Source: Ferroglobus placidus DSM 10642 (GTDB taxonomy: Archaea > Halobacteriota > Archaeoglobi > Archaeoglobales > Archaeoglobaceae). Taken from it: a stretch of DNA of 32,000 nucleotides. The notes beneath the pieces are model-generated. The model saw only the letters and a program-made list of their open reading frames with translations. It made no database searches and had not been told where the DNA came from. Shown one piece after another: positions 10,621 to 26,989 of this stretch. Positions within the stretch are counted from its first letter, which is position 1, and every line of letters begins with the position of its first letter. A program made the position numbers and the translations under genes. The stretch covers positions 1,500,001 through 1,532,000 of the forward strand of contig NC_013849.1 in the NCBI RefSeq assembly GCF_000025505.1, written 5' to 3'.

Positions 10621-13083
10621 ATGAGCGAGAAGCTAACTCCGATGATGGAGCAGTATTACAGGATTAAGCAAAAGTACAAAGATGCTTTGCTATTCTTCAG
10701 AGTCGGAGACTTCTACGAGCTTTTTGATGATGACGCAAGAGTTGCTTCGAAGGAACTCGGAATCGTGCTGACTTCGAGGGACAAGAAGCATGCGATGTGC
10801 GGAGTGCCGCATCACGCCGCTTACTCTTACATAAAAAAGCTGATAGAGAAAGGTTACAAGGTTGCGATCTGCGAGCAGGTTGAAGAGCCAACCGGAAAAA
10901 AGCTCGTTAGGAGAGAAGTCGTGAGGGTAATAACCCCCGGAACTGTCGTGGAAGAAGAGCTACTAACCACGGAAAGCAACTACCTAATGGCTCTCTTTAA
11001 AAGGGAAAAGGTGGCTCTCGCTTTCCTCGATGTCTCCACAGGAGAATTTTTCGTCACGAGCGTTAAAAATGTTGATGAGGCGATTTGCGAAGTTCTCAAG
11101 TATTCTCCTGTAGAGTGCTTAATTCCGGAAAGCTTCGAGGAAGTCGAGGAGTTGGAGAAGCTCGTTAAAAACGTTAGGAGAATTGAAGATGAGCAGTTTA
11201 ACCTGAAGAGGTCTCTGGAAGTTTTAAAAGACGTTGCAAATTTCCAAGCTCTGGAGTTGAGCGAGGAGGAAATTTTAGCTTGCGGAGCAGTTTTAAACTA
11301 CGCTAAAAACTCCCTTCTCTTTTCCAAACCAGCTTTAAAGCTTCAAAAACTGGAGAGATCAGAGTACATGGTTCTCGATTCGACGACGATCAAAAACCTC
11401 GAAATTTTCAGAAACCTTGTCGACGGCGGCAGAAGAGGAACTTTGCTCGACGTTATAGACAAAACTGTCACAGCGATGGGAAGCAGGTTGCTGAAGAAGT
11501 GGCTTCAGAGACCTCTTTTAGACGTAACGGAAATCGAGAGAAGGCTCGATGCTGTCGAAGAGTTGAAAGAAAAATCCTTCGTCAGGAGGGTTTTGAGAGA
11601 AACTCTTGAGGATGTCTACGATCTCGAAAGAATTATCACGAGGCTCGAACTCGGAAAAGCCAACCCAAAAGATCTCGTTGCTTTGAAGAACTCTCTTAAA
11701 GCTGTCGGAAAGATCAAGAAGTTCGATTTTCAATCTAAAAAACTTAGAGATCTCGTTTACGGAATGAATCCGATGGAAGAACTGTGTTCTTTAATAGAAA
11801 AGGCGATAGTGGAAGATCCTCCGGCAAACGTGAAGGATGGAGGAGTAATTAGGGAAGGATTCGACGAGGAGCTTGACGAGTTAAGAAAAGCGAAGAAAGA
11901 GCAGGAAGAGTTTATAAAACGATTGGAAGAGAGGGAAAGAAAGAGAACCGGAATAGATAATCTGAGGGTTGGTTACAATAACGTTTTCGGCTACTACATA
12001 GAGATACCGAAGAGCAAGGCTAAAAATCTGCCGAGGTATTACATTAGAAAGCAAACCCTCGTGAACGCTGAGAGGTTTACTATTCCGGAATTAAAGGATA
12101 GAGAGGAGAAGATTTTAGCTTACGAGGAGAGAATAAGAATTCTCGAGCAGGAGATTTTCGAGAGAATAAGAAGAGAAGTTGTCAGGCATGCTGAAAAGGT
12201 TAAGGATTCTGCCGAAAGGGTTGCTGAGCTCGACGTTCTCTGTTCTCTGGCTGAGGTTGCCACCCTCTACAACTACACCCGCCCAAAGGTGAACGAAGGC
12301 TTTGACATAATCATCAGAGACGGGAGGCATCCGGCGGTGGAAACAACAACGAAGTTCGTTCCGAACGACGTAAATCTGACGGAGAACAGCAGAATTTTAA
12401 TAATAACGGGTCCCAACATGGCTGGAAAATCCACTTATTTAAGGCAGGTTGCGTTGATAACGATTCTCGCTCAGATAGGGAGCTTCGTTCCGGCAAGTTA
12501 TGCTGTCGTAGGAATTGTGGACAAGATATTCACGAGAATAGGGCTTGTGGATGATATAACGAGAGGGAGAAGCACGTTTATGGTAGAGATGCTCGAAATC
12601 GGGAGAATTTTAAATAACGCAACAAAGAGGAGCTTAATTCTCCTTGACGAGGTCGGAAAGAGCACGGGAACGAAGGAAGGACTGAGCTTGGCTTGGGCTA
12701 TAATAGAGTACTTGCACGAGCTCGGAGCTAAAGTCCTTTTCGCAACCCACTATCACGAACTTTCGAAGCTTGAGAACGAGCTCGCTGGAGTGAAGAACTA
12801 CCATTTCAGGCTTAAGGAAGAGAACGGAAAGGTTGAGTTCGACAGGAAAATTAGGAGAGGTTTTTCTAAGGAAAGCTACGGGATAAAGATCGCGGAGATG
12901 GCTAATTTACCGAAGAGAGTTGTTGAAAGAGCCTACGAAATTTTGAATTCCGAGAACGTCAACGGGGAGGTGCCTGAAATAGTCGAGGAAATTTCGAAGA
13001 TTGACGTCATGAATCTGACTCCCGTTCAGGCTTTAGTTGAGCTTGAGAGGATTGTAAGAAAATGCAGAGAGTTGAAGAGCTGA
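10621..13083 (+). CDS. mutS: DNA mismatch repair protein MutS (full-length MutS1 type)
   Basis: TPMMEQYYRIKQKY, the mismatch-recognition motif RVGDFYELF, MCGVPHH, Walker A GPNMAGKSTYLRQ, LLDEVG, FATHYHEL and the C-terminal LTPVQAL helix. 820 aa. Confidence 0.93.
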   Translation: MSEKLTPMMEQYYRIKQKYKDALLFFRVGDFYELFDDDARVASKELGIVLTSRDKKHAMCGVPHHAAYSYIKKLIEKGYKVAICEQVEEPTGKKLVRREVVRVITPGTVVEEELLTTESNYLMALFKREKVALAFLDVSTGEFFVTSVKNVDEAICEVLKYSPVECLIPESFEEVEELEKLVKNVRRIEDEQFNLKRSLEVLKDVANFQALELSEEEILACGAVLNYAKNSLLFSKPALKLQKLERSEYMVLDSTTIKNLEIFRNLVDGGRRGTLLDVIDKTVTAMGSRLLKKWLQRPLLDVTEIERRLDAVEELKEKSFVRRVLRETLEDVYDLERIITRLELGKANPKDLVALKNSLKAVGKIKKFDFQSKKLRDLVYGMNPMEELCSLIEKAIVEDPPANVKDGGVIREGFDEELDELRKAKKEQEEFIKRLEERERKRTGIDNLRVGYNNVFGYYIEIPKSKAKNLPRYYIRKQTLVNAERFTIPELKDREEKILAYEERIRILEQEIFERIRREVVRHAEKVKDSAERVAELDVLCSLAEVATLYNYTRPKVNEGFDIIIRDGRHPAVETTTKFVPNDVNLTENSRILIITGPNMAGKSTYLRQVALITILAQIGSFVPASYAVVGIVDKIFTRIGLVDDITRGRSTFMVEMLEIGRILNNATKRSLILLDEVGKSTGTKEGLSLAWAIIEYLHELGAKVLFATHYHELSKLENELAGVKNYHFRLKEENGKVEFDRKIRRGFSKESYGIKIAEMANLPKRVVERAYEILNSENVNGEVPEIVEEISKIDVMNLTPVQALVELERIVRKCRELKS

Positions 13084-13586
13084 AGAAAAAACTTGAGGAA
13101 ATTGTAAGAGAGCTCGAAGAAATGCAATCTCTCCTAAAAGTTAAAGCTCTGGGAGAAGCTGTAGAAAGGATTAAAATTGCCATCAAAGAGCTCGAAGGTT
13201 TTGAGAAGAAGGGAAGCGAAAGCTTTTCCCACTACGACTTGAAAATAAAGCTCCTCGAGATGTTTAAAGGCTCCCACTATCTCGAAAGCGAGAGGACAAA
13301 ACTAAGCAAGTTTGGAGTGAGACCGGATGCTGTAGTTATAAAAGACGACGCTGTCGTATTAATCGAAGTCGAGAAAGATAAAAAGAACTTTTTGAAAAAA
13401 GTTAGGAAGCTCAAAAAAGTTAAAGACAAGCTTTTGGAGAGTCCTATATTCACCGGAAGGAAAATCAAATTTGTTTTCGGGCTTGTTGAATTCGAGATCG
13501 ATGAAGAGCTTAAAAAAGAGGTTTTAAGTCTCGGTGATGCGGAAGTCTACTCCTCTTTTGGTGGCGAGTTGAAGAGGTTGCTTTAG
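13062..13586 (+). CDS. Hypothetical protein with N-terminal coiled coil and a PD-(D/E)xK (restriction-endonuclease-fold) signature
   Basis: ATG 13062 overlaps the last 22 nt of mutS. The first roughly 50 aa show a heptad-like K/E/L pattern. The motif GVRPDAVVIKDDAVVLIEVEKDKK (nt 13320-13376) gives D89...E102-x-E104-K105. Confidence 0.5.
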   Translation: MQRVEELKKKLEEIVRELEEMQSLLKVKALGEAVERIKIAIKELEGFEKKGSESFSHYDLKIKLLEMFKGSHYLESERTKLSKFGVRPDAVVIKDDAVVLIEVEKDKKNFLKKVRKLKKVKDKLLESPIFTGRKIKFVFGLVEFEIDEELKKEVLSLGDAEVYSSFGGELKRLL

Positions 13587-13661
13587 ATTACTATTGAGAA
13601 AACTTTCAAACAACTATCCAACAATTGTATTAATATTTGGATGATGTTCAGCTAAATGGAA

Positions 13662-13675
13662 AAAAGTTTAAATAT
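13662..13675 (+). promoter_or_regulatory. BRE/TATA promoter of the mto-type operon
   Basis: AAAAGTTTAAATAT, with TTTAAATA ending 33 nt upstream of ATG 13707. An identical 14-mer occurs at 22787-22800. Confidence 0.55.
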
Positions 13676-13706
13676 GATATTCTACAATGATTAATTGGGT
13701 GTAAAC

Positions 13707-14732
13707 ATGACCCCAAAGGAAAGGATTAGGAAAATTTTCTCCAGGGAGAAGCCTGATAGGCTGGCATGTTTTAGCGGTATGGGTAACGTGACGGTAGAAG
13801 GTTTGAAGAAGTACGACTATGCCTTCTACGAAATTCACCTCGATGCAGAGAAGATGGCTAACGCTGCTTGCTCAAGTTACGAACTCTACGGATTTGAATG
13901 TGCAGTAGCTCCTTTCGATCTCGGTGTTGAAGCTGAGGTTCTCGGGGCTGAGATGAACTTCTACACCCACAAGGGCAAGGAGGACATAGTGTATCCGACG
14001 GTGAAGAAAAAAGCCATAAACGAGCCGGAAGATTTGAACGTTCCTGAAAAAATAGAAGAGAAGGGCAGAGTTCCACTTGTTTTAAAAGCCTTGGAAATTA
14101 TGCAGAAGAGAGTTGGAGAAGAAGTGCCGATTGCAACTTACATTCTCGGACCCTACACCTTAGCCGGGCAGATAATGGATTTGGAGAAGCTTTTAAAGAT
14201 GTCTTTCAAAAACCCCGACAGAATAAACGAGCTGCTCTCTCAGCTAACAGACTTCTTAGCCGAACTCGGAAGAATTTATCAGGATGCCGGTATAGATTAC
14301 TTGACAGTCAGAGAAATGGGCGCTCCAACAGACGTTTTAAGCCCAAGAATGTTCAAAAACCTAATCTTACCCCATCTGAAAGAGCTTTTCTTAAAGCTGA
14401 AAGAGCCAACGGTTTTGCACATTTGCGGAGATACGAACATGATAGTCGAATTAATGTGGCAGAGCGGAGCAACAGCGATAAGTGTTGAACAGAAGAATGA
14501 TGTGGCTAAAACAAGAGAAAAGCTCGGCGAAGAAGCTATAATTTTCGGAAACATAGACCCATACGGAACGCTCGTTCTTGGAACTCCTGAGGATATAAGA
14601 AATGCTGTCAAAAAGGCTATAGTGGGGGGAGTTAGCAGCGTTTGGCCGGGTTGCGATATTTGGCCAGCGGTCTCAAAAGAAAACATGCTCACGTTTGTTG
14701 AAGCTGTTAAGGAATTTGGAAAACTTCAGTGA
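13707..14732 (+). CDS. mtoB: UroD/MtaA-family substrate:corrinoid methyltransferase (MtoB-like, candidate O-demethylase)
   Basis: URO-D-fold methyltransferase with the zinc motif LHICGDT plus WPGCD, and GNIDP. First gene of a coupled methyltransferase/corrinoid/activase/MtrH-like set. The ORF track start TTG 13695 is less likely than ATG 13707. Confidence 0.7.
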   Translation: MTPKERIRKIFSREKPDRLACFSGMGNVTVEGLKKYDYAFYEIHLDAEKMANAACSSYELYGFECAVAPFDLGVEAEVLGAEMNFYTHKGKEDIVYPTVKKKAINEPEDLNVPEKIEEKGRVPLVLKALEIMQKRVGEEVPIATYILGPYTLAGQIMDLEKLLKMSFKNPDRINELLSQLTDFLAELGRIYQDAGIDYLTVREMGAPTDVLSPRMFKNLILPHLKELFLKLKEPTVLHICGDTNMIVELMWQSGATAISVEQKNDVAKTREKLGEEAIIFGNIDPYGTLVLGTPEDIRNAVKKAIVGGVSSVWPGCDIWPAVSKENMLTFVEAVKEFGKLQ

Positions 14733-14741
14733 GGTGATAGG

Positions 14742-15437
14742 ATGGTTGACGAAGCTAAAAGAAAGGAAATCTTGGAGAAGTTAAAGAGAGGAGTAGTTGA
14801 ATTCGATGAAGATCTCGTGAGGGAAGCAGCGAAGGAAGCTTTAGAAGTTGGAATGGATGCCCTCGATGCGATTATGAACGGACTCGTTGCGGGAATGGAA
14901 GAAGTTGGGGAGCTATTCGACAAAGGTGAGTACTTCGTTCCGGAAGTGCTGATGTGTGCTGACGCCCTTTATGCTGGACTCGAAATTCTTAGACCTCACG
15001 TGAAGAAGGAAGACATAAAGGTGAAAGGACAGGTCGTCATCGGAGTAGTGGAGGGAGACGTTCACGATATAGGCAAGAACCTCGTGAAGATGATGTTCGA
15101 AGTTGCCGGCTTTGAGGTAATTGATCTTGGAAAGGATGTCCCCCTCGAAAAGTTCGTGGAGGAGTCTTTGAAAAGTGATGCTGACATAGTTGCTTTATCG
15201 GCGATGATGACCACTACGATGCTCGGAATTCCCAAAGTCATTCAGATGATAAGAGAAAAGAATCCGAAAGCAAAGATTCTCGTTGGAGGTGCTCCGATAT
15301 CAAAAGAGACCGCCGAGAAGTGGGGAGCTGACGGGTGGGCTCCCGATGCGACTAATGCAGTGCAGGAAGCTATAAACATGATAAAAGGTTTAAAGAAAGA
15401 AATAATGGGAGAAGAAAAGGGGGAAGAGAAGAATTGA
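14742..15437 (+). CDS. mtoC: Corrinoid (B12-binding) protein, MtaC/MtoC type
   Basis: N-terminal helical cap, then the B12-binding domain with DxHxxG (GDVHDIGKNLV), LSAMMTTTM and VGGAP. GAGGTGA RBS lies in the 9-nt spacer after mtoB. Confidence 0.85.
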   Translation: MVDEAKRKEILEKLKRGVVEFDEDLVREAAKEALEVGMDALDAIMNGLVAGMEEVGELFDKGEYFVPEVLMCADALYAGLEILRPHVKKEDIKVKGQVVIGVVEGDVHDIGKNLVKMMFEVAGFEVIDLGKDVPLEKFVEESLKSDADIVALSAMMTTTMLGIPKVIQMIREKNPKAKILVGGAPISKETAEKWGADGWAPDATNAVQEAINMIKGLKKEIMGEEKGEEKN

Positions 15438-15455
15438 TCCTCTTCGGTGATTTTT

Positions 15456-17348
15456 ATGGAAAAGTGTAAAATTATTTTTCAGCCTGAAGGTAAAAGAGGT
15501 GAGTTTCCCCCGGGAACAACTATTCTGGACGCTGCAAGGGAGATTGGTGTGGATATAGAAGCGATTTGTGGTGGAAAGCTTACTTGCGGGAAGTGCCAAG
15601 TCGTTATTGAGCAGGGTGAGGAAAACCTCTCCCAGATGACGGAAGATGAGAGGAGACTGCTTGACAAAAGAAAAGCCGGGAAAAACTATAGACTTGCTTG
15701 CGTAACAAGATTTTACGGAGACGTGGTTGTTTTCGTTCCGGAAGAGAGTAGAGGTGGAGAGCAGATAATTCTCAAAGAGGGTGTTGAAGTTTCGGTAACA
15801 ATAGACCCTGCTGTGAAAAAGTATTACCTTGAGCTTCCGAAGCCACATTTAAAAGATGATCTCGGAGATTTTGAAAGAATTTTAAACGCTTTAAGAGAGG
15901 ATTACGGAATAGAAAACGTCGATATAGATTACGAGGTTTTAAAAAAGCTTCCGGATGTTTTGAGGGAAAGCGATTGGAAAGTAACCGTTACAATCTGGAA
16001 CGATAGAGAAATAATTGACGTCGAACCCGGATATAAGGCTGAGAACGTTTACGGTTTAGCTGTTGACATCGGAACCACAACTGTGGTTGGCTATCTAACG
16101 GATTTGAGAACCGGTAAAATCCTTGCTATAGATTCAATGATGAATCCTCAGGTGCCCTACGGAGAAGATGTGATGAGCAGAATAACGTATGCGATGCAAA
16201 ATCCAGAGGGTCTGGAAGTTTTGAACAAAAAGATAGTGGAGGGAATAAATCAGATTCTTGTGAACGTTTGCAAAGAAGCGGGAATTAAGCCTGAAGAAGT
16301 TAGCGAAGTGACTATAGTTGGAAACACAGCCATGCACCACATTTTTCTGAAGATAGATCCGCAGTATCTTGCTGTAGCTCCATACGTCCCGGCAATTCAC
16401 CGATCTCACGATGTTAAAGCGAGGGACATTGGAATTAAGATTGCAAAAGGTGGAAACGTCCACGTTTTACCAATAGAGGCTGGATGGGTTGGTGCAGACA
16501 ACGTGGCTGTTCTGATAGCTACAGAGCCTTACAAAAGAGATGAAATGTGCTTGGTTATAGACATCGGGACGAATGGAGAAATTGTTCTGGGGAACAGAGA
16601 GAGACTGCTTTCCTGCTCAGCCGCAGCAGGACCGGCTTTAGAGGGTGCTCATATAAAACACGGAATGAGAGCAGCGACTGGAGCTATAGAGCGAATCAGA
16701 ATAGATCCAGAAACTTTCGAGCCGGAATACAAAACGATAGGCAACGCCCCTCCACGAGGAATATGCGGCTCTGGGATAATCGATGCGGCTGCCGAACTTT
16801 ACAGGGTTGGTATAGTTAAGAAGAACGGAAGGTTCAATCTCGATCTCGATACGCCGAGAGTTAGAGTTGTTGATGGACAGCCGGAGTACGTTATAGCTTG
16901 GGCAAATGAAACGGCTATAGGACACGATATAGTGATTACCCAGAAAGACATAAGAGAGATCCAGCTTGCGAAAGGAGCTATGTGTGCCGGAGCCCACATA
17001 CTCATGAAGGAAATGGGAGTTGAGAGTGTTGACAGAGTAATTGTTGCCGGAGCCTTCGGAAACTACATCGACAAGATTTCAGCTTTAATAATAGGTTTGG
17101 TTCCCGATGTGCCTGTGGATAGGATAGAGTCGGTAGGAAACGCTGCTGGAGTTGGAGCGAGACTCGCTTTGATAAGCAGAGAGAAGAGAAGAGAAGCTAA
17201 CGAGATCGCGAGGAAAGTTGAGCATATCAAGCTGGCTGTACATCCGGATTTCGAAAGGGAATTCTCGATGGCGATGTACTTCCCTCACATGGATAAGAAG
17301 AGGTATCCGAGGCATGAAGAGGTTTTGAAGGTGAGAGGTGCTGAGTAA
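15456..17348 (+). CDS. mtoD: Reductive activase of corrinoid enzymes (2Fe-2S ferredoxin domain + ASKHA/DUF4445 ATPase; RACE/MtoD type)
   Basis: N-terminal AICGGKLTCGKCQV...LACVT ferredoxin motif. The C-terminal part has DIGTTTV and DIGTNGE actin-fold phosphate loops. An alternative GTG start lies at 15447. Confidence 0.8.
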   Translation: MEKCKIIFQPEGKRGEFPPGTTILDAAREIGVDIEAICGGKLTCGKCQVVIEQGEENLSQMTEDERRLLDKRKAGKNYRLACVTRFYGDVVVFVPEESRGGEQIILKEGVEVSVTIDPAVKKYYLELPKPHLKDDLGDFERILNALREDYGIENVDIDYEVLKKLPDVLRESDWKVTVTIWNDREIIDVEPGYKAENVYGLAVDIGTTTVVGYLTDLRTGKILAIDSMMNPQVPYGEDVMSRITYAMQNPEGLEVLNKKIVEGINQILVNVCKEAGIKPEEVSEVTIVGNTAMHHIFLKIDPQYLAVAPYVPAIHRSHDVKARDIGIKIAKGGNVHVLPIEAGWVGADNVAVLIATEPYKRDEMCLVIDIGTNGEIVLGNRERLLSCSAAAGPALEGAHIKHGMRAATGAIERIRIDPETFEPEYKTIGNAPPRGICGSGIIDAAAELYRVGIVKKNGRFNLDLDTPRVRVVDGQPEYVIAWANETAIGHDIVITQKDIREIQLAKGAMCAGAHILMKEMGVESVDRVIVAGAFGNYIDKISALIIGLVPDVPVDRIESVGNAAGVGARLALISREKRREANEIARKVEHIKLAVHPDFEREFSMAMYFPHMDKKRYPRHEEVLKVRGAE

Positions 17349-18298
17349 TGTTTTGCGTTGAATCGAAAGTAGTTGAGATCGGTGGAATCAAGATTGGGGG
17401 GAAGGGGGAAAATCCGGTAGTCTTAGTGGGAACGATGTTTTACACCGGACACAAGATAGTGGAGAAAAGGAAGGAAGGGAAGTTCGACAGGAAAAAGGCT
17501 GAGGAGCTGATAAACATGCAGGAAACTCTGAGCGAAGAAACCGGGATTCCGTCCATGCTCGATATAGTCGCTCTGTCCGAGGAAGAGTTTAAGAAGTACA
17601 TAGATTTCGTGGCTGAAGTGACGGAAATGCCGTTCATGATAGATGCTTGGAAAATTCCACCAAAGATAGGGGCTGCTAAATACGTGAAGGAAATAGGTCT
17701 GGAGGATAGAGTAGTTTACAACTCCTTATCTCCTTGGAGCGAGGATTTGGAGAAGGAGGTTAACGAACTTAGAGAAATTGGGCTGAAGCACGGTTTGACA
17801 GTTGCATACAACATGAACGATCCGAGTGTTGAGGGGAGGATAAGAATTCTAAAGGAGACGCTCCTCCCAGCTTTGGAAAAAGCCGGATTCGAAAACATTC
17901 TCATTGACACATCCGTTTTGAACACTCCTTCGATAGCTCTTTCTCTCTTAGCCTGTAAAAAGATTAAGGAGGTGTTCGGACATCCGGTTGGTTGCGCCCC
18001 TTCAAACGGCACGGATGTTTGGAAGTATCCGAGGGAAAAGTGGGGCAAACTCGGTTTCGCAGCTGTAGATAGCGCAGCTCATGCGATAACAGCTTTGCTA
18101 TGGAACGACTTCATACTCTACGGAGCGATAGAAAATGCGAAGTGGGTTTTCCCAGCTGTAGCAACAGCCAACTCAATTCTGGCGACCTTCATATACGATG
18201 AAGTTGGCAAACTGCCTGAAGGAGAGCATCCGCTGAACAAACTCTTCCCCGAGTTTGTGGAGCAGCTAGGGGCAGTAAAATGTGGAAATCGATCATAA
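17348..18298 (+). CDS. mtoA: MtrH-family methyl-corrinoid:tetrahydromethanopterin methyltransferase (MtoA type)
   Basis: Near-collinear with recalled MtrH: IGG..GE.P, GTMFYTGHKIVE, AEELIN.Q, YIDFVAEV, YNS, DPSVEG, IDTSV, GHPVG, ILYGAIENA..FPAVA. TAATG overlap with mtoD. Confidence 0.85.
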   Translation: MFCVESKVVEIGGIKIGGKGENPVVLVGTMFYTGHKIVEKRKEGKFDRKKAEELINMQETLSEETGIPSMLDIVALSEEEFKKYIDFVAEVTEMPFMIDAWKIPPKIGAAKYVKEIGLEDRVVYNSLSPWSEDLEKEVNELREIGLKHGLTVAYNMNDPSVEGRIRILKETLLPALEKAGFENILIDTSVLNTPSIALSLLACKKIKEVFGHPVGCAPSNGTDVWKYPREKWGKLGFAAVDSAAHAITALLWNDFILYGAIENAKWVFPAVATANSILATFIYDEVGKLPEGEHPLNKLFPEFVEQLGAVKCGNRS

Positions 18299-19284
18299 TC
18301 TTTCTATTTTTAGCTGTAGCAATCATCATTTCAGGTTGTGCGGAGGAAAAATCCGTAAAGCTCGTTAAGCTTTCCCCTCCAGACATGCTTGAACAGATAA
18401 AAATAGGGAAGATAGACGCTTTTATAGCCTGGGAGCCTTTTCCGAGTAAAGCTGTCAAAAGCGGGCAGAAGATTTTGATGTATTCCGGAGACATATGGAA
18501 AAATCACCCGTGCTGCGTTGTTGCTTACAAGGTTGGAAATGCTGACGAAAAAATGCTTGAAGCTTTGGTCTGGGCTCACGTAAAGGCGACGAGATTCATA
18601 AACGATGAGAAAAATCGGAATAAAGTGGTTATCTACGCTTCCCAATTCACAGGGCTGGATGAAGAGACGGTAAAGATGGCTTTAAAGAATATAAAGTACG
18701 TGGAGTATCCGGATGGGAAGGAGTTCAGGCATTACTACGAGTTTTTGAAGGAGGCAGCAATTCTGAAGAAATCTATCGAAGACTTGGGATACAAAAGCGA
18801 GGAAGAGTTTTTCGAGAAGTTTTTGAGGAAAGACGTTTACGAAAAAGTTGTTACTAAACTTGAGGAAAACCCGAATTACGTTCCGGAAAAAGCTGGAAAA
18901 ATTAGACTCGGATACATAACAGCCGATCTACACCATCTCGCCTTGTACGTCGCTTTGAAAGAAGGGTACTTTGACAAAGTTTTTGAGAAAGTTGATTTAA
19001 AGCAGTATCCCAACGGAGTTGCGATAATGGAAGCTTTTAAACTCGGAGAGCTTGATGCAGCTTATCTTGGTGGTGCTCCTGCAACTTTGAAGAGGATAAA
19101 CGATGGAATAGAAATTTCAATAGTTGCCGGAGTTAACAACGAAGGCTCTGCTTTAGTTGTGAGAGAGGGAATAAACTCGCCAAAGGATTTAGCTGGGAAA
19201 ACTGTAGCGATTCCGGGATTTGGAACTGTCCAAGACTTCCTAATGAGAAAAGTCCTAAGGGAGGGAGGGTTGAAGGGAAGTTGA
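18280..19284 (+). CDS. ABC transporter substrate-binding lipoprotein, NMT1/SsuA (nitrate/sulfonate/bicarbonate) family, circularly permuted
   Basis: Signal peptide plus lipobox-like IIISGC. aa 207-334 (IRLGY...DLAGKTVAIPGFGTVQDFLMRKVLREGGL) match the SsuA N-terminal half. aa 25-85 (VKLSPPDMLEQIKIGKIDAFIAWEPF...HPCCVV) match the SsuA C-terminal half. The start overlaps mtoA by 19 nt. Confidence 0.75.
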   Translation: MWKSIIIFLFLAVAIIISGCAEEKSVKLVKLSPPDMLEQIKIGKIDAFIAWEPFPSKAVKSGQKILMYSGDIWKNHPCCVVAYKVGNADEKMLEALVWAHVKATRFINDEKNRNKVVIYASQFTGLDEETVKMALKNIKYVEYPDGKEFRHYYEFLKEAAILKKSIEDLGYKSEEEFFEKFLRKDVYEKVVTKLEENPNYVPEKAGKIRLGYITADLHHLALYVALKEGYFDKVFEKVDLKQYPNGVAIMEAFKLGELDAAYLGGAPATLKRINDGIEISIVAGVNNEGSALVVREGINSPKDLAGKTVAIPGFGTVQDFLMRKVLREGGLKGS

Positions 19285-20042
19285 ACCAGAAAATTTATTC
19301 CGCTCTCCTCTTCATCTCTCTCTGGTACCTCTTATATTTTCTGAACGTTCTTCCAGCCTTTCACGTAGTTGTCGTAACTTTTTTAGAGCTTGTTGTTGAA
19401 GCGGAGCCTGTTCTTGGAAAGACTCTCCTTCAGCATGCAGCTTCGAGCCTATTAAGAGTTTTAGCTGGAGCAACAGTAGCTTTTTCCCTCTCAATCCCCC
19501 TCGGAATTTTGATGTGGTTTTCGAGGACATACAATCTCTTACATCCAGCTATAGAGGTTCTAAGACCAATTCCCCCTCTTGCATGGATCCCCCTCTCTTA
19601 CATTCTCTTCGCCTCATTCCCCAACCCAACGGTTTTCGCTCAAATTTTTATCGTAGCTGTCGGAGCTTTCTTTCCAAGCTTCGTAACGATTTCCGATTAC
19701 GTCAGAGGGATTCCTCAGGAGTTCATCGAATTGGCGAAAGTTTTTGGTGCGAGAAACTTTGATTTGTTAACGAAAATAGTTCTTCCTTATTCCCTCCCCG
19801 GGATAATCACCGGTATTAGGGTTGGACTCGGGGTTGGATGGATGAGCATAATCGCTGCCGAGATGATTGCTTCCTCAGGCTCTGGTTTAGGATATTTCAT
19901 TCTCGTCATGTACGAAGTCGGAGGGAGAATGCCGGAAATACTTGCTGGAATGGCTATGATCGGTCTTATAGGATATTTGATGAATACTCTTCTTTTTAAA
20001 CTGGAGGAAAGATTTCCATGGCGCTTGAAATCAGAAACGTGA
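19281..20042 (+). CDS. ABC transporter permease (SsuC/TauC-type, BPD_transp_1)
   Basis: Six predicted TM segments. EAA-loop-like ELAKVFGARNFDLLTKIVLPYSLPGIITGIRVGLGVGW. TTGA start/stop overlap with the binding-protein gene. Confidence 0.85.
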   Translation: MNQKIYSALLFISLWYLLYFLNVLPAFHVVVVTFLELVVEAEPVLGKTLLQHAASSLLRVLAGATVAFSLSIPLGILMWFSRTYNLLHPAIEVLRPIPPLAWIPLSYILFASFPNPTVFAQIFIVAVGAFFPSFVTISDYVRGIPQEFIELAKVFGARNFDLLTKIVLPYSLPGIITGIRVGLGVGWMSIIAAEMIASSGSGLGYFILVMYEVGGRMPEILAGMAMIGLIGYLMNTLLFKLEERFPWRLKSET

Positions 20043-20761
20043 AGAAGAGTTTTGGAGATTTAAAAGTTCTCGACGGAGTGAGCTTTGAAGTAGAGAAAGG
20101 CGAGTTCGCTTGTATTGTAGGGGAGTCCGGATGCGGAAAAACAACTCTGCTTAAGATAGTGGCTGGACTTGTTAAAGCAGATGAGGGAGAAGTTTTATAC
20201 GATGGGAGAGAGCTGAAAACGGAAGACATAGCTTTCGTTTTTCAGGACGATCGTCTTTTGCCTTGGAGAACCGCCTTAGAAAACGTGATGTTTTCCTTGG
20301 AGATGAGAATGCGAGAGCTGGATAAGAAGCGGAGGGAAGAGATAGCAAAGAGTTTCCTTGAACTCGTGGGATTGAAAGGATTCGAAAACTACTACCCCCA
20401 CCAGCTCAGCGGAGGAATGAGGCAGCGAGTCGGAATTTGTCGAGCTTTAGCGGTAAATCCTAAAGTGCTGCTCATGGATGAACCCTTTGCAAGTCTCGAC
20501 GCTCAGACGAGGAACAGGATGCAACTCGAACTTCTGAGGATTTGGGAAAGGGAAAGAAAAACTATTCTTTTCGTAACCCACAGCGTTGACGAGGCTGTTT
20601 TCTTGGCAGATAAAGTCGTCGTTCTTTCTCCACGCCCGACAAAAGTCCTGAAAGTTTTGGAAATTAATCTGGAGAGACCGAGGGACAGGACTTCTCCAGA
20701 GTTCATAGGATACAGAAGAGAAATTATAAACTTTCTTCAGGGGTCTTCTTTCTTAATTTGA
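20018..20761 (+). CDS. ABC transporter ATP-binding protein (SsuB/TauB-type)
   Basis: Walker A GESGCGKTT, Q-loop FQDDRLLPW, signature LSGGMRQRV, Walker B LLMDEPFASLD and H-loop FVTHS. GGAGG RBS at 20003-20007. Confidence 0.92.
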   Translation: MALEIRNVKKSFGDLKVLDGVSFEVEKGEFACIVGESGCGKTTLLKIVAGLVKADEGEVLYDGRELKTEDIAFVFQDDRLLPWRTALENVMFSLEMRMRELDKKRREEIAKSFLELVGLKGFENYYPHQLSGGMRQRVGICRALAVNPKVLLMDEPFASLDAQTRNRMQLELLRIWERERKTILFVTHSVDEAVFLADKVVVLSPRPTKVLKVLEINLERPRDRTSPEFIGYRREIINFLQGSSFLI

Positions 20762-21919: not shown

Positions 21920-22024
21920 ATAAATTCACTAAGCTTTTCACCACTTATAAAATTTCGTCGGTTTGTTCACTTCTTGCAAAAACGCAGCGAATACAATTAT
22001 ATGTTCCTTTCCGTTGATTCTTTC

Positions 22025-22330
22025 ATGAAAGTTATCATTACCGACCAACCGTGCGGCTATAAAAGTGAGGTAATAGCGAAAAAAATCGATAAAAGCGTGA
22101 AAATTGAGATAATTTCCGAATGCGAGGACGTTCGTAAATTTGGAGAAGAACTGCCGATTTTAAGTGCAAAAGACGTTCTTACAAGAATTCCAGAAAATAT
22201 CGTTTACAAAAAAGCTAATTTAAAGCACTCCACCTGCATAATTCCCTGGGTCGTTTTAAAAGCTGCGGAAATTGAGCTTGGACTCAACGTTAAAAGGTTG
22301 CCAAGAATAAAGTTTGAGGACGACTTTTGA
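22025..22330 (+). CDS. Small hypothetical Cys-containing protein
   Basis: 101 codons from ATG 22025, which lies about 27 nt after the TATA-like acaattatat (21993-22002). The ORF track allows TTG 21974. No family recognised. Confidence 0.4.
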   Translation: MKVIITDQPCGYKSEVIAKKIDKSVKIEIISECEDVRKFGEELPILSAKDVLTRIPENIVYKKANLKHSTCIIPWVVLKAAEIELGLNVKRLPRIKFEDDF

Positions 22331-22385
22331 TCATTGTCCAAAAAATTTTGATATGGCTATACATTCGTACATGTTTTTGATCATT
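22325..22385. repeat. Two copies of TTTTGATCATT spaced exactly 50 bp apart
   Basis: Copies at 22325-22335 and 22375-22385. Each contains the palindrome TGATCA. Located in the 119-bp intergenic region upstream of the TusA-like gene. Confidence 0.5.
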
Positions 22386-22410
22386 TTTTAGGATTACATC
22401 CAGAAGAGAC

Positions 22411-22431
22411 CGAAATGTTTATATTGTTTCG
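22411..22431 (+). promoter_or_regulatory. TATA box (TTTATATT, 22418-22425) bracketed by the inverted repeat CGAAA-N11-TTTCG
   Basis: Read directly. The TATA box ends 25 nt upstream of ATG 22450, which suggests a leaderless or near-leaderless mRNA. Confidence 0.45.
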
Positions 22432-22449
22432 AATCTGTAATTATTCTCA

Positions 22450-22668
22450 ATGACAGTTATCGACCTTAGAGGCTTAACGTGCCCCGAGCCAATAATTAAG
22501 CTCAGACAAGAAATGAGCAAATTCAAACCGGGAGATGTAGTAGAAGTTCTAACCACAGACCCAGGAACGATGATCGACATTCCGATATGGGCAGGAAATT
22601 CTGGTATTGTGGTTTTAGAGTGTAGGAGAGAAGGAGACCACATCAAATTCGTTTTAAAGAAAATTTAA
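22450..22668 (+). CDS. TusA/SirA-family sulfur-carrier protein
   Basis: 72 aa with DLRGLTCPEPIIKLRQ (the family CPxP motif) and the two-layer alpha/beta length typical of TusA. Confidence 0.85.
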   Translation: MTVIDLRGLTCPEPIIKLRQEMSKFKPGDVVEVLTTDPGTMIDIPIWAGNSGIVVLECRREGDHIKFVLKKI

Positions 22669-22786
22669 AGCGTTTAATGGCGTTAAAATCTTCCCAGAAT
22701 TTATTATGGTTCAAATTTTGGATAATATCTAAATAAATTCGAGAAAATTGATACTGAAGTATAATACATCTCGGGATTGTTGAGAG

Positions 22787-22800
22787 AAAAGTTTAAATAT
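22787..22800 (+). promoter_or_regulatory. BRE/TATA promoter of the CMD / methyltransferase-2 unit
   Basis: AAAAGTTTAAATAT, identical to 13662-13675. Followed by the GGAGGTGA RBS (22830-22837) and ATG 22842. Confidence 0.5.
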
Positions 22801-22841
22801 AGTTATTAAAAATTATAATTGTTTATTGTGGAGGTGAGAGT

Positions 22842-23261
22842 ATGGGAAACAAGGAGTGTGAAGAATACGTCAAAGAAAGAATGAAACTGATGCCAAGATT
22901 TTTGAAGACCGTCTGTGAGGTTTGGCCGGAAGCTGCTAAAAAGTTTGCAGATTTCTATGAGGTAATCTGGAGGGATGGGGCTTTAGATAGAAAGACCAAG
23001 GAGTTAATTTTCACTGCCATAGGAGTAGCGACTGCCTCTCCAAGATGTATTGTTCATGTAATTGCCGCTGTTGAAGCTGGTGCTACTGATGAGGAAATTC
23101 TCGAAGCCGTCACTGTAGGATTCATCGGAGCTGGCTTCTATCCAAACAATCCGGGAATTCCGTACGCTTTCGAATACGCTGTAAAAGCGATTGAAGTTGC
23201 TCAGAAGTATAGAAGAGGAGAAGATTGGGAATACTTAAAACCGCCGGAGTTCAGAGGATAA
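22842..23261 (+). CDS. Carboxymuconolactone decarboxylase (CMD/AhpD-like) family protein
   Basis: KTKELIFTAIGVATASPRCIVHVIAAVEAGATDEEILEAV matches the CMD helix pair. The usual CxxC position reads SPRC. Confidence 0.7.
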   Translation: MGNKECEEYVKERMKLMPRFLKTVCEVWPEAAKKFADFYEVIWRDGALDRKTKELIFTAIGVATASPRCIVHVIAAVEAGATDEEILEAVTVGFIGAGFYPNNPGIPYAFEYAVKAIEVAQKYRRGEDWEYLKPPEFRG

Positions 23262-23311
23262 CTTTCTATTTTTTCAGTTTTACAATTTTTGTGTTGCTTT
23301 GGGGTGAAAAA

Positions 23312-24343
23312 ATGCGTCCGAAAGACATTCTCCTTGAAGCTTTTGAATTAGGAGTTCCGGAAAGAGTTCCTGCGGTAATTTTTGGAGGAGGTATGTGGAC
23401 GATTAAAAATTCTGGCAAGGATTTCCTTTACTATATTGGCAAGCCGAAGGAGTATGCGGAGCTTATAGTTAAAACAGCAGACATTCTGCAGTCGGACATG
23501 GTTTACCCTGGCTCGGGATACAACAACTTTCTGGCTGCTGCGATAGGTGGAAAGATTAAGGTTAGGCACATAGGTGCTCCCGATTTGGAGGGACCAATTA
23601 TAAACTCTCCGGAGGACCTTGAAGCTTTGGAAATTGACAAAATTTATGAAAACGAAGCTCTTCAAACTATTTGGAAAGCTTCCGAGATTGTTTACAACGA
23701 GATTGGGGATAAATATTTAGTCGGGACGACTTCCTGGGGTCCTTTCACGAAAGCCGGAAATTTGAGAGGTGTAGAGCAGCTCATGAGGGACATCTACAAG
23801 AACAAGGAATTTGCTAAAAAAGTGATAGAGTTCGCCAAAGACCTCATAATGGCTTTTTACGAGCCAGTAGTTAAGGATGCGGGGTTAGAGGCTGTGAGCA
23901 TAGCAGACCCGACGGCAAGTGGAGATTTGATATCGAGGAGGCACTTTTTAGAGTTCGCATTACCACCTTTAAAGGAACTGATAGACGAGATGAAAAAGCG
24001 TAAAATAGCTGTGTTTTTACACATTTGCGGAGATACGAGCGATAAGTTGAGGGAGATAGCGGAAAGCAAAGCCAGCTGCTTCAGCTTGGATCACAAAGTA
24101 GATCTCGGTTATGCCAAGAGCACGCTTAAGAGTGTTATATGTATAGCCGGCAACGTCGATCCAGTTTCGGTTTTAAACGACGGCACTCCAGAATATGTAG
24201 AGGAAGTGTCAAATAAGTGCATTCACATTGCTGCTGAAGGTGGCGGCTACGTCCTATGCCCGGGATGTGATATCCCTCCAACAGTTCCCCTTGAAAACAT
24301 TCAGGCTTTTATAAGAGCTGCAAGAAAAACCAAGCTCAGATAA
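23312..24343 (+). CDS. UroD/MtaA-family methyltransferase, paralogue 2 (no adjacent corrinoid protein)
   Basis: FLHICGDTSD, AGNVDP and LCPGCDIPP are the same Zn and fold motifs as 13707..14732. ATG 23312 is preceded by GGGGTGA. The ORF track start at 23225 would add a hydrophobic, non-homologous extension. Confidence 0.8.
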   Translation: MRPKDILLEAFELGVPERVPAVIFGGGMWTIKNSGKDFLYYIGKPKEYAELIVKTADILQSDMVYPGSGYNNFLAAAIGGKIKVRHIGAPDLEGPIINSPEDLEALEIDKIYENEALQTIWKASEIVYNEIGDKYLVGTTSWGPFTKAGNLRGVEQLMRDIYKNKEFAKKVIEFAKDLIMAFYEPVVKDAGLEAVSIADPTASGDLISRRHFLEFALPPLKELIDEMKKRKIAVFLHICGDTSDKLREIAESKASCFSLDHKVDLGYAKSTLKSVICIAGNVDPVSVLNDGTPEYVEEVSNKCIHIAAEGGGYVLCPGCDIPPTVPLENIQAFIRAARKTKLR

Positions 24344-24409
24344 CTATTTTTTATTTTTCATTTGATTACAAGCCAACTTTTATAAACGAGTTGTTAACTA
24401 TAATTAATT

Positions 24410-24943
24410 ATGAGCGAAATAAACGGCGTTGATGTGGAATATTTAAAGCAGTTAGTGGAGACTGTGAAGAAGCATCCGGAGCTCGGCAGAACTCTCTGGA
24501 GAGCAAGATCTAAATGGAAAGACGGTTTCAAAGTTGAAGTGAACATAAGGGACTTCACAATCAGAATGGATGAACCAAAAGATCTCGGAGGCACCAATAC
24601 AGCTCCAAACATGGTGGAATTCGTATTAGGAGCTTTAGGAGCTTGCCTTGTTGTTGGTTATGTTATGAACGCAGCGATTAGAGGAATAGAGCTCGATAAA
24701 GTTGAAATAGATGTAGAGGGAGACATCGACCTTCCCGGCTTTTTTGGCTTGGAGTCTCCGGAAAAGGTCTCTCCGGGATTTACAAACATCAGAGCAAGGG
24801 TATTCCTTAAAACGAAAAAACCCGTAAGTAAAGAGGAGCTTAAAGAGCTTCACGAAACAGTTGTGAAAACCTCACCTGTCGGAAACACGCTGATGAAGCC
24901 TGTTAATCTGGAAGTAAAATTGGAGGAAAGGAGAACTGTTTAA
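24410..24943 (+). CDS. OsmC/Ohr-family protein (single-Cys variant)
   Basis: GGTNTAPNMVEFVLGALGACLVVG is the OsmC core. The second conserved Cys (CP) position reads TSPV. TATA TTTTATAAA (24378-24386) ends 24 nt before the ATG. Confidence 0.8.
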   Translation: MSEINGVDVEYLKQLVETVKKHPELGRTLWRARSKWKDGFKVEVNIRDFTIRMDEPKDLGGTNTAPNMVEFVLGALGACLVVGYVMNAAIRGIELDKVEIDVEGDIDLPGFFGLESPEKVSPGFTNIRARVFLKTKKPVSKEELKELHETVVKTSPVGNTLMKPVNLEVKLEERRTV

Positions 24944-25311
24944 CCTACACAAATGACTTTGTCTGCTTCGAGAGCGAGATAAATGAACGTGGCAGCCCCG
25001 GCAACCTCAGCTTCATCGATTATGTCCTCTTCTTTTATTTTTCTCACTACAAGCGTTTGAGAGCAAACATAGATTTTCACTCCTGCTTCAATCGCCTCGT
25101 TCAATCTCTGCCTTATTGTAGGTACTCCCGGCTTTACCTCTTCTTTATCCAAAGCTCCCTTGACCATTATCTCCACTCCATCCTGAAAGCAGAAAACTGT
25201 CGTTTTTATCCCGAGATTGGCACTTAGGGCTGCGAGCATTAGCGTAGTTCTCGCTATATCCGGGTAATTCAAGCCCTTACTCAGAACGAAAACAAGCTTT
25301 TTCTCCGCCAT
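24940..25311 (-). CDS. DsrE/DsrF-like family protein (COG2044-like)
   Basis: About 123 aa alpha/beta protein. KLVFVLSKG, VFCFQDGV and IYVCSQTL resemble DsrE-type proteins. The ATG at 25311 fits the TATA (minus strand, 25331-25339) better than TTG 25326. Confidence 0.6.
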   Translation of the reverse strand: MAEKKLVFVLSKGLNYPDIARTTLMLAALSANLGIKTTVFCFQDGVEIMVKGALDKEEVKPGVPTIRQRLNEAIEAGVKIYVCSQTLVVRKIKEEDIIDEAEVAGAATFIYLALEADKVICVG

Positions 25312-25449
25312 GGGGTAAAATTTCAAAGGAATTTTATAGCTTTTACTTCCGCTCCAAGTCTAATCGAGACAATAACTTCAAACTTCTACCAAAAGTCGTG
25401 GAAAATCTACAGCAAAATTATAATTGCTAAAAATCAGAGATCTTTGGAT

Positions 25450-26517
25450 TTACGCATAAGAGTCGCCAGTAGCTCTAACGCTGATCTTTTTAACAGTTTC
25501 GACCATCACCCTAACGTTTCTGTTCGGGGTTAGCGGAGAAAGAGAACAGCCAGGAGCGATTATATCTATTCCCGCCTCTATCGCTCGAAGCGTCTCAGCT
25601 TCAACATCTTCAGGTTTTCCGAAGGGAAGAGTGTATATCGTGTCGATGTTACCCATTATCGCCGCCTTTCCTCTTGAAATCTCCACCGCAAACCTTGCGT
25701 CAGTCTTCGAATCTATGCTCAAGCAAGTCGCTTTCGTCTCTACCATGTCTTCGATTATGCTCGTGCAATCTCCGCAGATGTGGAGTATGGTTATTCCCTT
25801 GATCTTCCTTATCAGCTTTCTATCGAAAGGCTTTGCAAACTTCGCATAGTTTTTCGCTCCTATTACATCTGCGGAAGCGAACATGTTCTCGATGACTATC
25901 GCATCAGCTCCCCTATCTCTCATAGCTTTCGCATACTCTGCTATCGCATCAAGCCCCATTTCGGTGAATTCTTCAACAAGCTTGGGTTTTTTTATGGACA
26001 TCTTCAGAATCTTTTCTATGTTCGCTATGTGAGCAGCTAAGGAAAACGGACCTATAACGTGCCCCAATACTGGAAGAAAGTCTCCGTACTTCTCAGCTAA
26101 AATTTCGATCGCATCGAGAACTATCGGTATTCTTCCCCTCTCCAAGAAGTTTTCGGGAACCTCTATTCCCTCCGGAGCAACGCAACCTTTAAAAGAAACA
26201 ACCGGAATGCTGCTCTTCTTTTTTCCCCAGTTCACTTCCAAACCAAACGCTTCAGCTTCCACAGTTTGGCAAAACGGTACACCAACCCCCTCCAATCCGA
26301 GTTCTTCCCAAGCAGCAGAAGCTAATGTTGCAAGCTTTTCAGGGTTTGAATAGGCATCTTTGTAAAATATTCCAAGTTTCTCCATCTGCTCTATCGTGGC
26401 TGTTTGGTTAGCAGACAAAACCGGAGGACGGTCTACCTTTTTCAATTTAACTGCTTTTAAAAACCTTTCCTTTGGCGTTAACTCATTCGCAGAAAAGCTT
26501 TTTGAGATCCTCTTCAT
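25450..26517 (-). CDS. UroD/MtaA-family methyltransferase, paralogue 3 (no adjacent corrinoid protein)
   Basis: LTPKERFLKA N-terminus like paralogue 1. ILHICGDCT, MGNIDT and IAPGCSLSP. The start overlaps the Lrp gene stop by 35 nt. Confidence 0.8.
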   Translation of the reverse strand: MKRISKSFSANELTPKERFLKAVKLKKVDRPPVLSANQTATIEQMEKLGIFYKDAYSNPEKLATLASAAWEELGLEGVGVPFCQTVEAEAFGLEVNWGKKKSSIPVVSFKGCVAPEGIEVPENFLERGRIPIVLDAIEILAEKYGDFLPVLGHVIGPFSLAAHIANIEKILKMSIKKPKLVEEFTEMGLDAIAEYAKAMRDRGADAIVIENMFASADVIGAKNYAKFAKPFDRKLIRKIKGITILHICGDCTSIIEDMVETKATCLSIDSKTDARFAVEISRGKAAIMGNIDTIYTLPFGKPEDVEAETLRAIEAGIDIIAPGCSLSPLTPNRNVRVMVETVKKISVRATGDSYA

Positions 26518-26989
26518 TGTAATTCACCAGCAACCTTTTCTCTTCCTTAATTATCGAAGCTACGAAGTGCGTTCCTGTCTTTACAACTCCGTCGATGGCA
26601 TGTATCTCTCTGAGAATTCTTTTGAGATCTTCTCTGTCCTTTGCCCTCGCTATAACAATGAAATCGAAATCTCCGAGGATGTAGTAGACTGCAAAAACTC
26701 CTGAAATCGACGCAAGCTTCTGTCCGATTTCCTCCGGCGTTGTGTTGTTATAACTCACGCTTACGAACGTTACGGTGGTTATATCGAGTCCAAGGGCTTC
26801 CGGATTTAGCTCTATCAACGTACCTTTTATAAGTCCCATTTTTTTAAATTTCTTCAGTCTGTAGTGGACGGTGGAGCGGGAAATGTTCGTAATTTTCGAT
26901 ATTTCGTCGAGATTGTAGCTTCCGTTTTCCTCCAAGCACTTCAGGATCTTCAGGTCCTTTTCCTCAAGTTTTACCACCATCTCTACCAC
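26483..26989 (-). CDS. Lrp/AsnC-family transcriptional regulator
   Basis: KILKCLEENGSYNLDEISKITNISRSTVHYRLKKFKKMGLIKG (HTH), followed by a RAM/ACT-like domain (FVSV...GVFAVYYILGDFDFIVIARAKD). GTG start at 26989, alternative ATG at 26980. Confidence 0.88.
   Translation of the reverse strand: MVEMVVKLEEKDLKILKCLEENGSYNLDEISKITNISRSTVHYRLKKFKKMGLIKGTLIELNPEALGLDITTVTFVSVSYNNTTPEEIGQKLASISGVFAVYYILGDFDFIVIARAKDREDLKRILREIHAIDGVVKTGTHFVASIIKEEKRLLVNYNEEDLKKLFCE

Follow-up and report, generated by a model that had tools for sequence, protein, structure and literature searches.

The soluble coenzyme M (CoM) methyltransferases of Methanosarcina (MtaA, MtbA, MtsA, and MtsD/F/H) combine a UroD fold with a cognate corrinoid protein and a His-Cys-Cys site, which marks S- or Se-methyltransferases in the MtaA/CmuA superfamily (10.1101/2023.07.31.551370). 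Other described systems are assembled from similar parts. MtoABCD of Methermicoccus shengliensis and Archaeoglobus fulgidus has a four-protein layout with a bacterial-type activase, ending in an MtrH-like tetrahydromethanopterin (H4MPT) transferase, and Mto clusters have major facilitator superfamily (MFS) transporters (PMC8359953, PMC8630106). Type 1 mlp clusters, most of whose hosts have selenium traits, encode several His-Cys-Cys MtaA-like proteins, a corrinoid protein, and a RACE activase; those described have no H4folate transferase, and Mlp2 methylates selenide and, at a slower rate, sulfide (10.1101/2023.07.31.551370). The mec and cmu halomethane cassettes likewise encode several UroD-family transferases with an MtrH-like protein, a corrinoid protein, and an activase (mec, 10.1101/2021.08.30.458270). 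CoM itself is used by methanogens, alkane-oxidizing archaea, and alkene-oxidizing bacteria (PMC12068725). Here we analyze a seven-gene operon of this general kind from Ferroglobus placidus DSM 10642, whose genome assembly consists of a single contig (2,196,266 bases). The operon lies in a stretch of 32,000 nucleotides (nt) (NC_013849.1, positions 1,500,001 to 1,532,000), which we call the window. F. placidus AEDII12DO is a hyperthermophile that reduces Fe(III) or nitrate, has an H4MPT-dependent acetyl-CoA pathway, and degrades aromatics (PMC3236036). Our analysis points, with a probability of roughly 55%, to a soluble module that transfers methyl groups between methyl-CoM, a corrinoid protein, and H4MPT, has its own CoM importer, and probably serves methyl-sulfur compounds. 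The literature that we searched did not describe this system for F. placidus. A CoM-linked methyltransferase cassette in anaerobes that lack Mcr would add to the known uses of CoM, and, whereas the relatives that we found come from metagenome-assembled genomes, F. placidus is a pure culture in which such a use can be examined. The analysis also yields a ligand hypothesis for a widespread family of naturally permuted binding proteins and takes away a false lead for methoxydotrophy.

Open reading frame (ORF) calling recovered all seven same-strand ORFs at positions 13710 to 20761 of the window. In gene order, they are joined by a 9-nt gap, an 18-nt gap (after which the activase starts with an ATG at 15456), a TAATG overlap, a 19-nt overlap, a TTGA overlap, and a 25-nt overlap. 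Profile searches assigned the products to the families URO-D/MtaA-CmuA (13710-14732), B12-binding (14742-15437), Fer2 plus RACo with linker, middle, and C-terminal domains (15456-17348), MtrH (17348-18298), NMT1/SsuA (18280-19284), BPD_transp_1 (19281-20042), and ABC_tran (20018-20761). The seven-gene run, its TATA box, every junction, and the gene families are all as an initial annotation of this DNA had described them. Such tight packing suggests that the seven genes would be co-transcribed. The TATA box TTTAAATA occupies 13667-13674, next to a purine-rich BRE (13659-13666) and 36 nt ahead of the start codon at 13710. A strict BRE-TATA pattern has 39 occurrences in the genome, three of them in the window, and nine Archaeoglobi orthologues have a TATA-like box at the equivalent position. 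Farther upstream, the element TTTGGATGAT (13636-13645) is a candidate regulator site. Similar elements precede the TATA box in seven orthologous loci, and another copy of the form TTTGGAT(A/G)AT lies at 22717-22726, in the promoter region of the gene for a CMD/AhpD-like protein; an Lrp-type regulator encoded at 26483-26989 may bind both. Just before the operon (10621-13586), the gene for MutS (820 aa) overlaps that of a 174-aa protein that has no match in Pfam or NCBIfam.

The product of the first gene (MT1) passed the TIGR01463 profile (245.3 bits versus a cut-off of 235.4) and PRK06252, the profile of methylcobalamin:CoM methyltransferase (269.4 bits versus a cut-off of 244). It scored below the MtaA/MtbA equivalog cut-offs (NF040654, 254 versus 400 bits; NF041608, 187 versus 600 bits). 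A zinc triad, His237-Cys239-Cys315 (His-x-Cys...Cys), was invariant in 58 aligned sequences, and the predicted structure (predicted local distance difference test score [pLDDT], 95) matched MtaA (4ay7) with a template modeling (TM) score of 0.93. Despite this likeness to the Methanosarcina enzymes, MT1 is only 31 to 34% identical to its closest M. acetivorans paralogues and falls in a clade of its own (99/100) that takes in neither MtaA/MtbA nor CmuA, MtoB, or the Mlp-like proteins. Other differences are that the partners of MT1 include a bacterial-type activase and an MtrH-like protein that is soluble and that F. placidus has no Mcr. We consider it very likely that the operon is an S/Se-methyltransferase system. 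Two features of the MT1 clade, Arg201 in a TVRE-type motif (window positions 14310 to 14312) and a (C/V)FSG(M/L)G motif, were kept in 14 of 14 clade sequences examined and are absent from MtaA; an anionic substrate group could be held by such conserved residues.

The corrinoid protein, with a DVHDIG motif at residue 106, was 51% identical to a type-1-mlp-like corrinoid protein and 49% identical to an MtsD-type corrinoid domain. The MtrH-like protein passed the PRK00979 cut-off. MT1 and the MtrH-like protein are fused in frame, as a 765-amino-acid (aa) protein, in Anaerolineales UBA4826 (locus L058:8020-10317). Elsewhere, the F. placidus genome encodes a second MtrH-like protein (31%; 119576-120376) and a second RACo activase (38%; 326583-328310).

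Is the operon an Mto system, as the initial annotation had proposed? The four-component architecture of methyltransferase, corrinoid protein, bacterial-type activase, and MtrH-like H4MPT transferase stood up to comparison with A. fulgidus MtoA-D (mto cluster, L103), but the Mto identity did not. MT1 (340 aa) and A. fulgidus MtoB (417 aa) share 22% identity in an aligned stretch of 200 aa. MtoB does not have the His-x-Cys...Cys triad kept in MT1, and MT1 lies outside the MtoB clade; we found no MtoB orthologue in the F. placidus genome. The other three proteins are 38, 43, and 43% identical to MtoC, MtoD, and MtoA, respectively, because they belong to shared families. The operon is almost certainly not Mto; it starts with a different enzyme that has a zinc-thiol site, and it encodes an ATP-binding cassette (ABC) importer instead of an MFS transporter.

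The importer has an unusual binding protein, a circularly permuted lipoprotein. Residues 19 to 117 align with the NMT1_2 model in its second half (positions 147 to 248) and residues 208 to 333 with the first half of TIGR01728 (positions 1 to 129), so that the two halves are swapped. This permuted order was common to the 120 best homologues, which aligned over 83 to 100% of their length and came from Archaeoglobi, some Bacillota, and one genome of the Methermicoccaceae. A sample of 16 permuted proteins formed one clade (100/100). In Desulfitibacter (L090), the permuted importer genes are preceded by genes for a pyridine-nucleotide disulfide oxidoreductase and a LarA-like protein and are followed by CoA-transferase genes, an arrangement that resembles CoM-dependent carboxylation clusters. 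Because the structural model is confident (pLDDT, 95), the permutation appears to be an intact family trait and not damage. As is to be expected of swapped halves, the matches from fold searches with the model were mediocre (best TM, ∼0.4; Z, 8.7). These searches named no ligand, and the clusters retrieved from the ESM Atlas were all generic NMT1 ones. Among solved structures, TauA matched best.

What could this importer carry? The ssuABC genes are present in almost all methanogens (PMC10658910) and have been called a CoM-specific ABC transporter, with the binding protein MA0065 increased by 2.2 log2 in CoM starvation (PMC12068725). We assigned MA0063-65 to this transporter by position (73.7 kb in M. 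acetivorans), by gene order with the regulator MA0067, and by the published MA0065 data. Each of MA0063, MA0064, and MA0065 had the corresponding importer gene of the window as its best F. placidus match; for MA0064 it was the sole match, and for MA0063 it scored 241 bits, with 137 bits for the runner-up. In the reverse direction, followed for the binding protein only, an un-permuted cassette relative (L062) retrieved MA0065 as its sole M. acetivorans match; M. acetivorans has one close relative of the family. With its halves reordered to the standard arrangement, the F. placidus binding protein scored higher with MA0065 (114 bits) than with TauA (63.5 bits) or Escherichia coli SsuA (51 bits), although it is only 31% identical to MA0065 and does not nest in its clade; a tree placed the two in separate subclades, and a single clade was neither supported nor rejected (p-AU, 0.21). 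The permease scored 127 bits against MA0064, 100 against TauC, and 84 against E. coli SsuC. The motifs HxCC and GT(V/I)QD are common to the binding protein and methanogen SsuA and absent from E. coli SsuA and TauA. The TauA positions that we take to be sulfonate contacts (G61, G79, and T132) are conserved in the binding protein, and D205, presumably the amine-binding residue of TauA, aligns within its HPCC motif (residues 76 to 79). Relatives of the importer keep the divergent helix-turn-helix (HTH) regulator of the methanogen transporter: most permuted importers in Archaeoglobi stand alone, and a regulator 40 to 56% identical to MA0067 is divergent before stand-alone copies. No such regulator was found in the F. 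placidus genome. In one genome (G094), such a regulator (54% identical to MA0067), the cysteate synthase gene (cs), comDE, and the permuted ssuABC genes share one locus.

Judged by homology and gene context, the importer probably carries CoM or a close derivative. Nitrate and bicarbonate were rejected as ligands, as NrtA and CmpA score below TauA and methanogen SsuA; the position that we assume to be the NrtA lysine ligand is a Cys in the binding protein. A pyrimidine precursor was also rejected, as ThiY and THI13 match less well and there are no thiamine genes next to the operon. We agree with the earlier remark that an SsuA-type protein would be odd for aromatic ethers. Of the substrates then offered, a sulfonate came nearest and a pyrimidine-like compound fell away. 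The idea that the importer takes up the methyl donor needs revision with regard to an aromatic donor, since the evidence for CoM or a derivative implies that the importer probably supplies a cofactor instead.

Gene neighborhoods also connect MT1 with CoM. MT1 has relatives at 73 to 97% identity in other Archaeoglobi and at 50 to 59% in Nitrospirota (Thermodesulfovibrionia), Hydrothermarchaeales, Chloroflexota, and others. We compared 80 MT1 loci, 70 of them outside the Archaeoglobi; because kin are not independent, the counts of loci and genomes are descriptive. A corrinoid protein was encoded in 76 of the 80, MtrH in 75, an activase in 67, a CMD protein in 61, a second methyltransferase in 60, a DUF6951 protein in 48, an HdrD-like protein in 45, an OsmC-like protein in 14, and a DsrE-like protein in 9. 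The window has most of these partners beyond the operon, at 21974 to 26989. On the plus strand are genes for the DUF6951 protein (21974-22330), a TusA-like sulfur carrier (22450-22668; below cut-offs), the CMD/AhpD-like protein (22842-23261), a second His-Cys-Cys methyltransferase, MT2 (23312-24343), and the OsmC-like protein (24410-24943); on the minus strand are those for the DsrE-like protein (24940-25326), a third His-Cys-Cys methyltransferase, MT3 (25450-26517), and an Lrp/AsnC regulator (26483-26989). MT3 scored 353 bits with PRK06252 and fell inside the MtaA/MtbA/Mlp1-3 clade (97/91), beside Mlp1/3-like proteins (93/85), and MT2 grouped weakly with Mlp2-like proteins and CmuA (84/48). 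The Mlp references came from one type-1-mlp-like cluster with the Clostridium ljungdahlii gene order, in Acetoanaerobium noterae (L141:4156-7126), which also encodes an NMT1-type ABC importer, 22% identical to that of F. placidus. In Geoglobus-type relatives this half of the cassette is upstream of MT1 and divergent from it, with the Lrp/AsnC gene facing away from MT1, so the F. placidus locus is rearranged. Between the two halves lies a convergent gene for a PduO-type cobalamin adenosyltransferase (PF01923; 20737-21291, minus strand), which is also downstream in L001, L003, L097, and L098. Elsewhere in the genome (952086-953796), a DsrM/HdrE-like and HdrD-like pair is 45 and 58% identical to the pair within the Geoglobus UBA235 cassette and is a candidate reductase for CoM disulfides. 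Cysteate synthase and/or fused ComDE, which stand at the start of type 2 CoM synthesis and of which one representative each passes curated cut-offs, occurred in 43 of the 70 non-Archaeoglobi loci and ssuABC in 8; the 21 loci with neither the CoM precursor genes nor ssuABC include many on short contigs. The slot 3′ of mtrH holds cs-comDE in one member of the Hydrothermarchaeales (L012), an HTH gene plus ssuABC in another (L019), and the permuted ssuABC genes in F. placidus. The binding proteins found with the methyltransferase cassette in distant phyla belong to four or more separate subclades. In L005 the importer does not follow mtrH. JdFR-42, which has two McrA-like genes and no match to ComA or ComDE, carries the permuted importer on another contig, plus a second importer. 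Across 96 Archaeoglobi genomes, ComDE was found in 7 of the 10 with MT1 versus six full-length matches in the other 86. ComDE without the cassette, as in those six genomes, would fit CoM as a general thiol; an antioxidant role is reported in Methanosarcina (PMC12713407). About 24 of the 96, among them A. fulgidus, have the permuted importer but neither an MT1 orthologue nor ComDE, and the family may therefore transport other sulfonates, or CoM for other purposes. All 13 Archaeoglobi with full-length ComDE have a signal-less NMT1-fold protein (motif GxLSTxYHTS; in F. placidus at 747382-748218, L085:5383-6219, minus strand; also in L092, L095, L100, L101, L102, and L012), whose gene comes straight after comDE in ten of them; it is a candidate for the missing step of CoM synthesis or for a cytoplasmic CoM-binding protein.

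In the model that we favor, slightly above even odds, MT1 would bind a thiol, most likely CoM, at its zinc site and exchange a methyl group with the corrinoid protein. As is usual in their families, the MtrH-like protein would pass the methyl group between corrinoid and H4MPT, and the RACo activase would restore Co(I). The ABC system would take up CoM, and possibly methyl-CoM or its disulfide, in addition to de novo synthesis by cs-comDE. MT2 and MT3 probably put other methyl-sulfur or methyl-selenium compounds on the same carrier or take them off. By a narrow margin, we favor a flow of methyl groups from methyl-thioethers to H4MPT and their oxidation to CO2 with Fe(III) or nitrate. This direction suits the respiration of F. 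placidus but is uphill by about 30 kJ/mol at the step from CoM to H4MPT; the alternative is a downhill flow from methyl-H4MPT that would methylate thiols, sulfide, or selenide. In a bolder and less likely version, F. placidus makes and imports CoM in order to oxidize methanethiol or dimethylsulfide through methyl-CoM and H4MPT. This would be the archaeal form of a pathway shared with Thermodesulfovibrionia and Chloroflexota and a candidate genetic basis for anaerobic methyl-sulfide oxidation by non-methanogens.

A less likely rival is a type-1-mlp-like system that does not use CoM as a substrate: it would demethylate methanethiol, dimethylsulfide, or methyl-selenides, or methylate sulfide or selenide, directly on the corrinoid, and the importer would carry another small organosulfur compound. 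The identities of the corrinoid protein, the tree positions of MT2 and MT3, and the nearby TusA, DsrE, OsmC, and CMD genes speak for it. It leaves unexplained the cs-comDE genes in 43 of the 70 loci and the exchange of cs-comDE for ssuABC in one slot; MT1 forms a separate clade, an MtrH-like gene is present, and no SelD passes its cut-off in the genome, for which reason selenium salvage was rejected as the main role. That a general sulfonate transporter came to lie beside the methyltransferase genes, co-transcribed but functionally unrelated, is unlikely. The many stand-alone importers and the match to TauA favor this reading; the cassette-borne subclades in distant phyla, the 19-nt overlap with mtrH, and the missing MA0067-type regulator speak against it. 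A halomethane (Cmu/Mec-like) system is also unlikely. The parts lists of mec and this cassette, compared at the level of gene content, are similar, and MT2 leans weakly towards CmuA. Yet MT1 is 23.5% identical to CmuA, no MecJ-type antiporter or sensor kinase gene is nearby, the CoM genes would go unexplained, and the mec study reports that public genomes outside Dehalobacter have no homologue above 35% (10.1101/2021.08.30.458270).

F. placidus itself has adjacent cs-like and fused comDE genes (869337-871651; L081:7338-9652), and the ComD (alpha) half passes its cut-off. The cs-like product (288 versus 325 bits) and the ComE (beta) half (204 versus 221.5 bits) score below theirs, and no CoM synthase MMP16 passes, although one COG1900-type protein is present. 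The gene pair also occurs in complete Geoglobus-type genomes that have neither the methyltransferase cassette nor Mcr; in Geoglobus-type genomes, genes for a TiaS-kinase-domain protein and a radical SAM protein lie just ahead of cs-comDE (L095:2396-4373 and L100:10111-12082). We did not find McrA or ComA in the genome, and with Mcr absent no methane is made. A strict rule that the importer replaces CoM biosynthesis was rejected, because F. placidus, L014, and L062 have both; cysteate synthase had no match in the genomes of L011 and L068.

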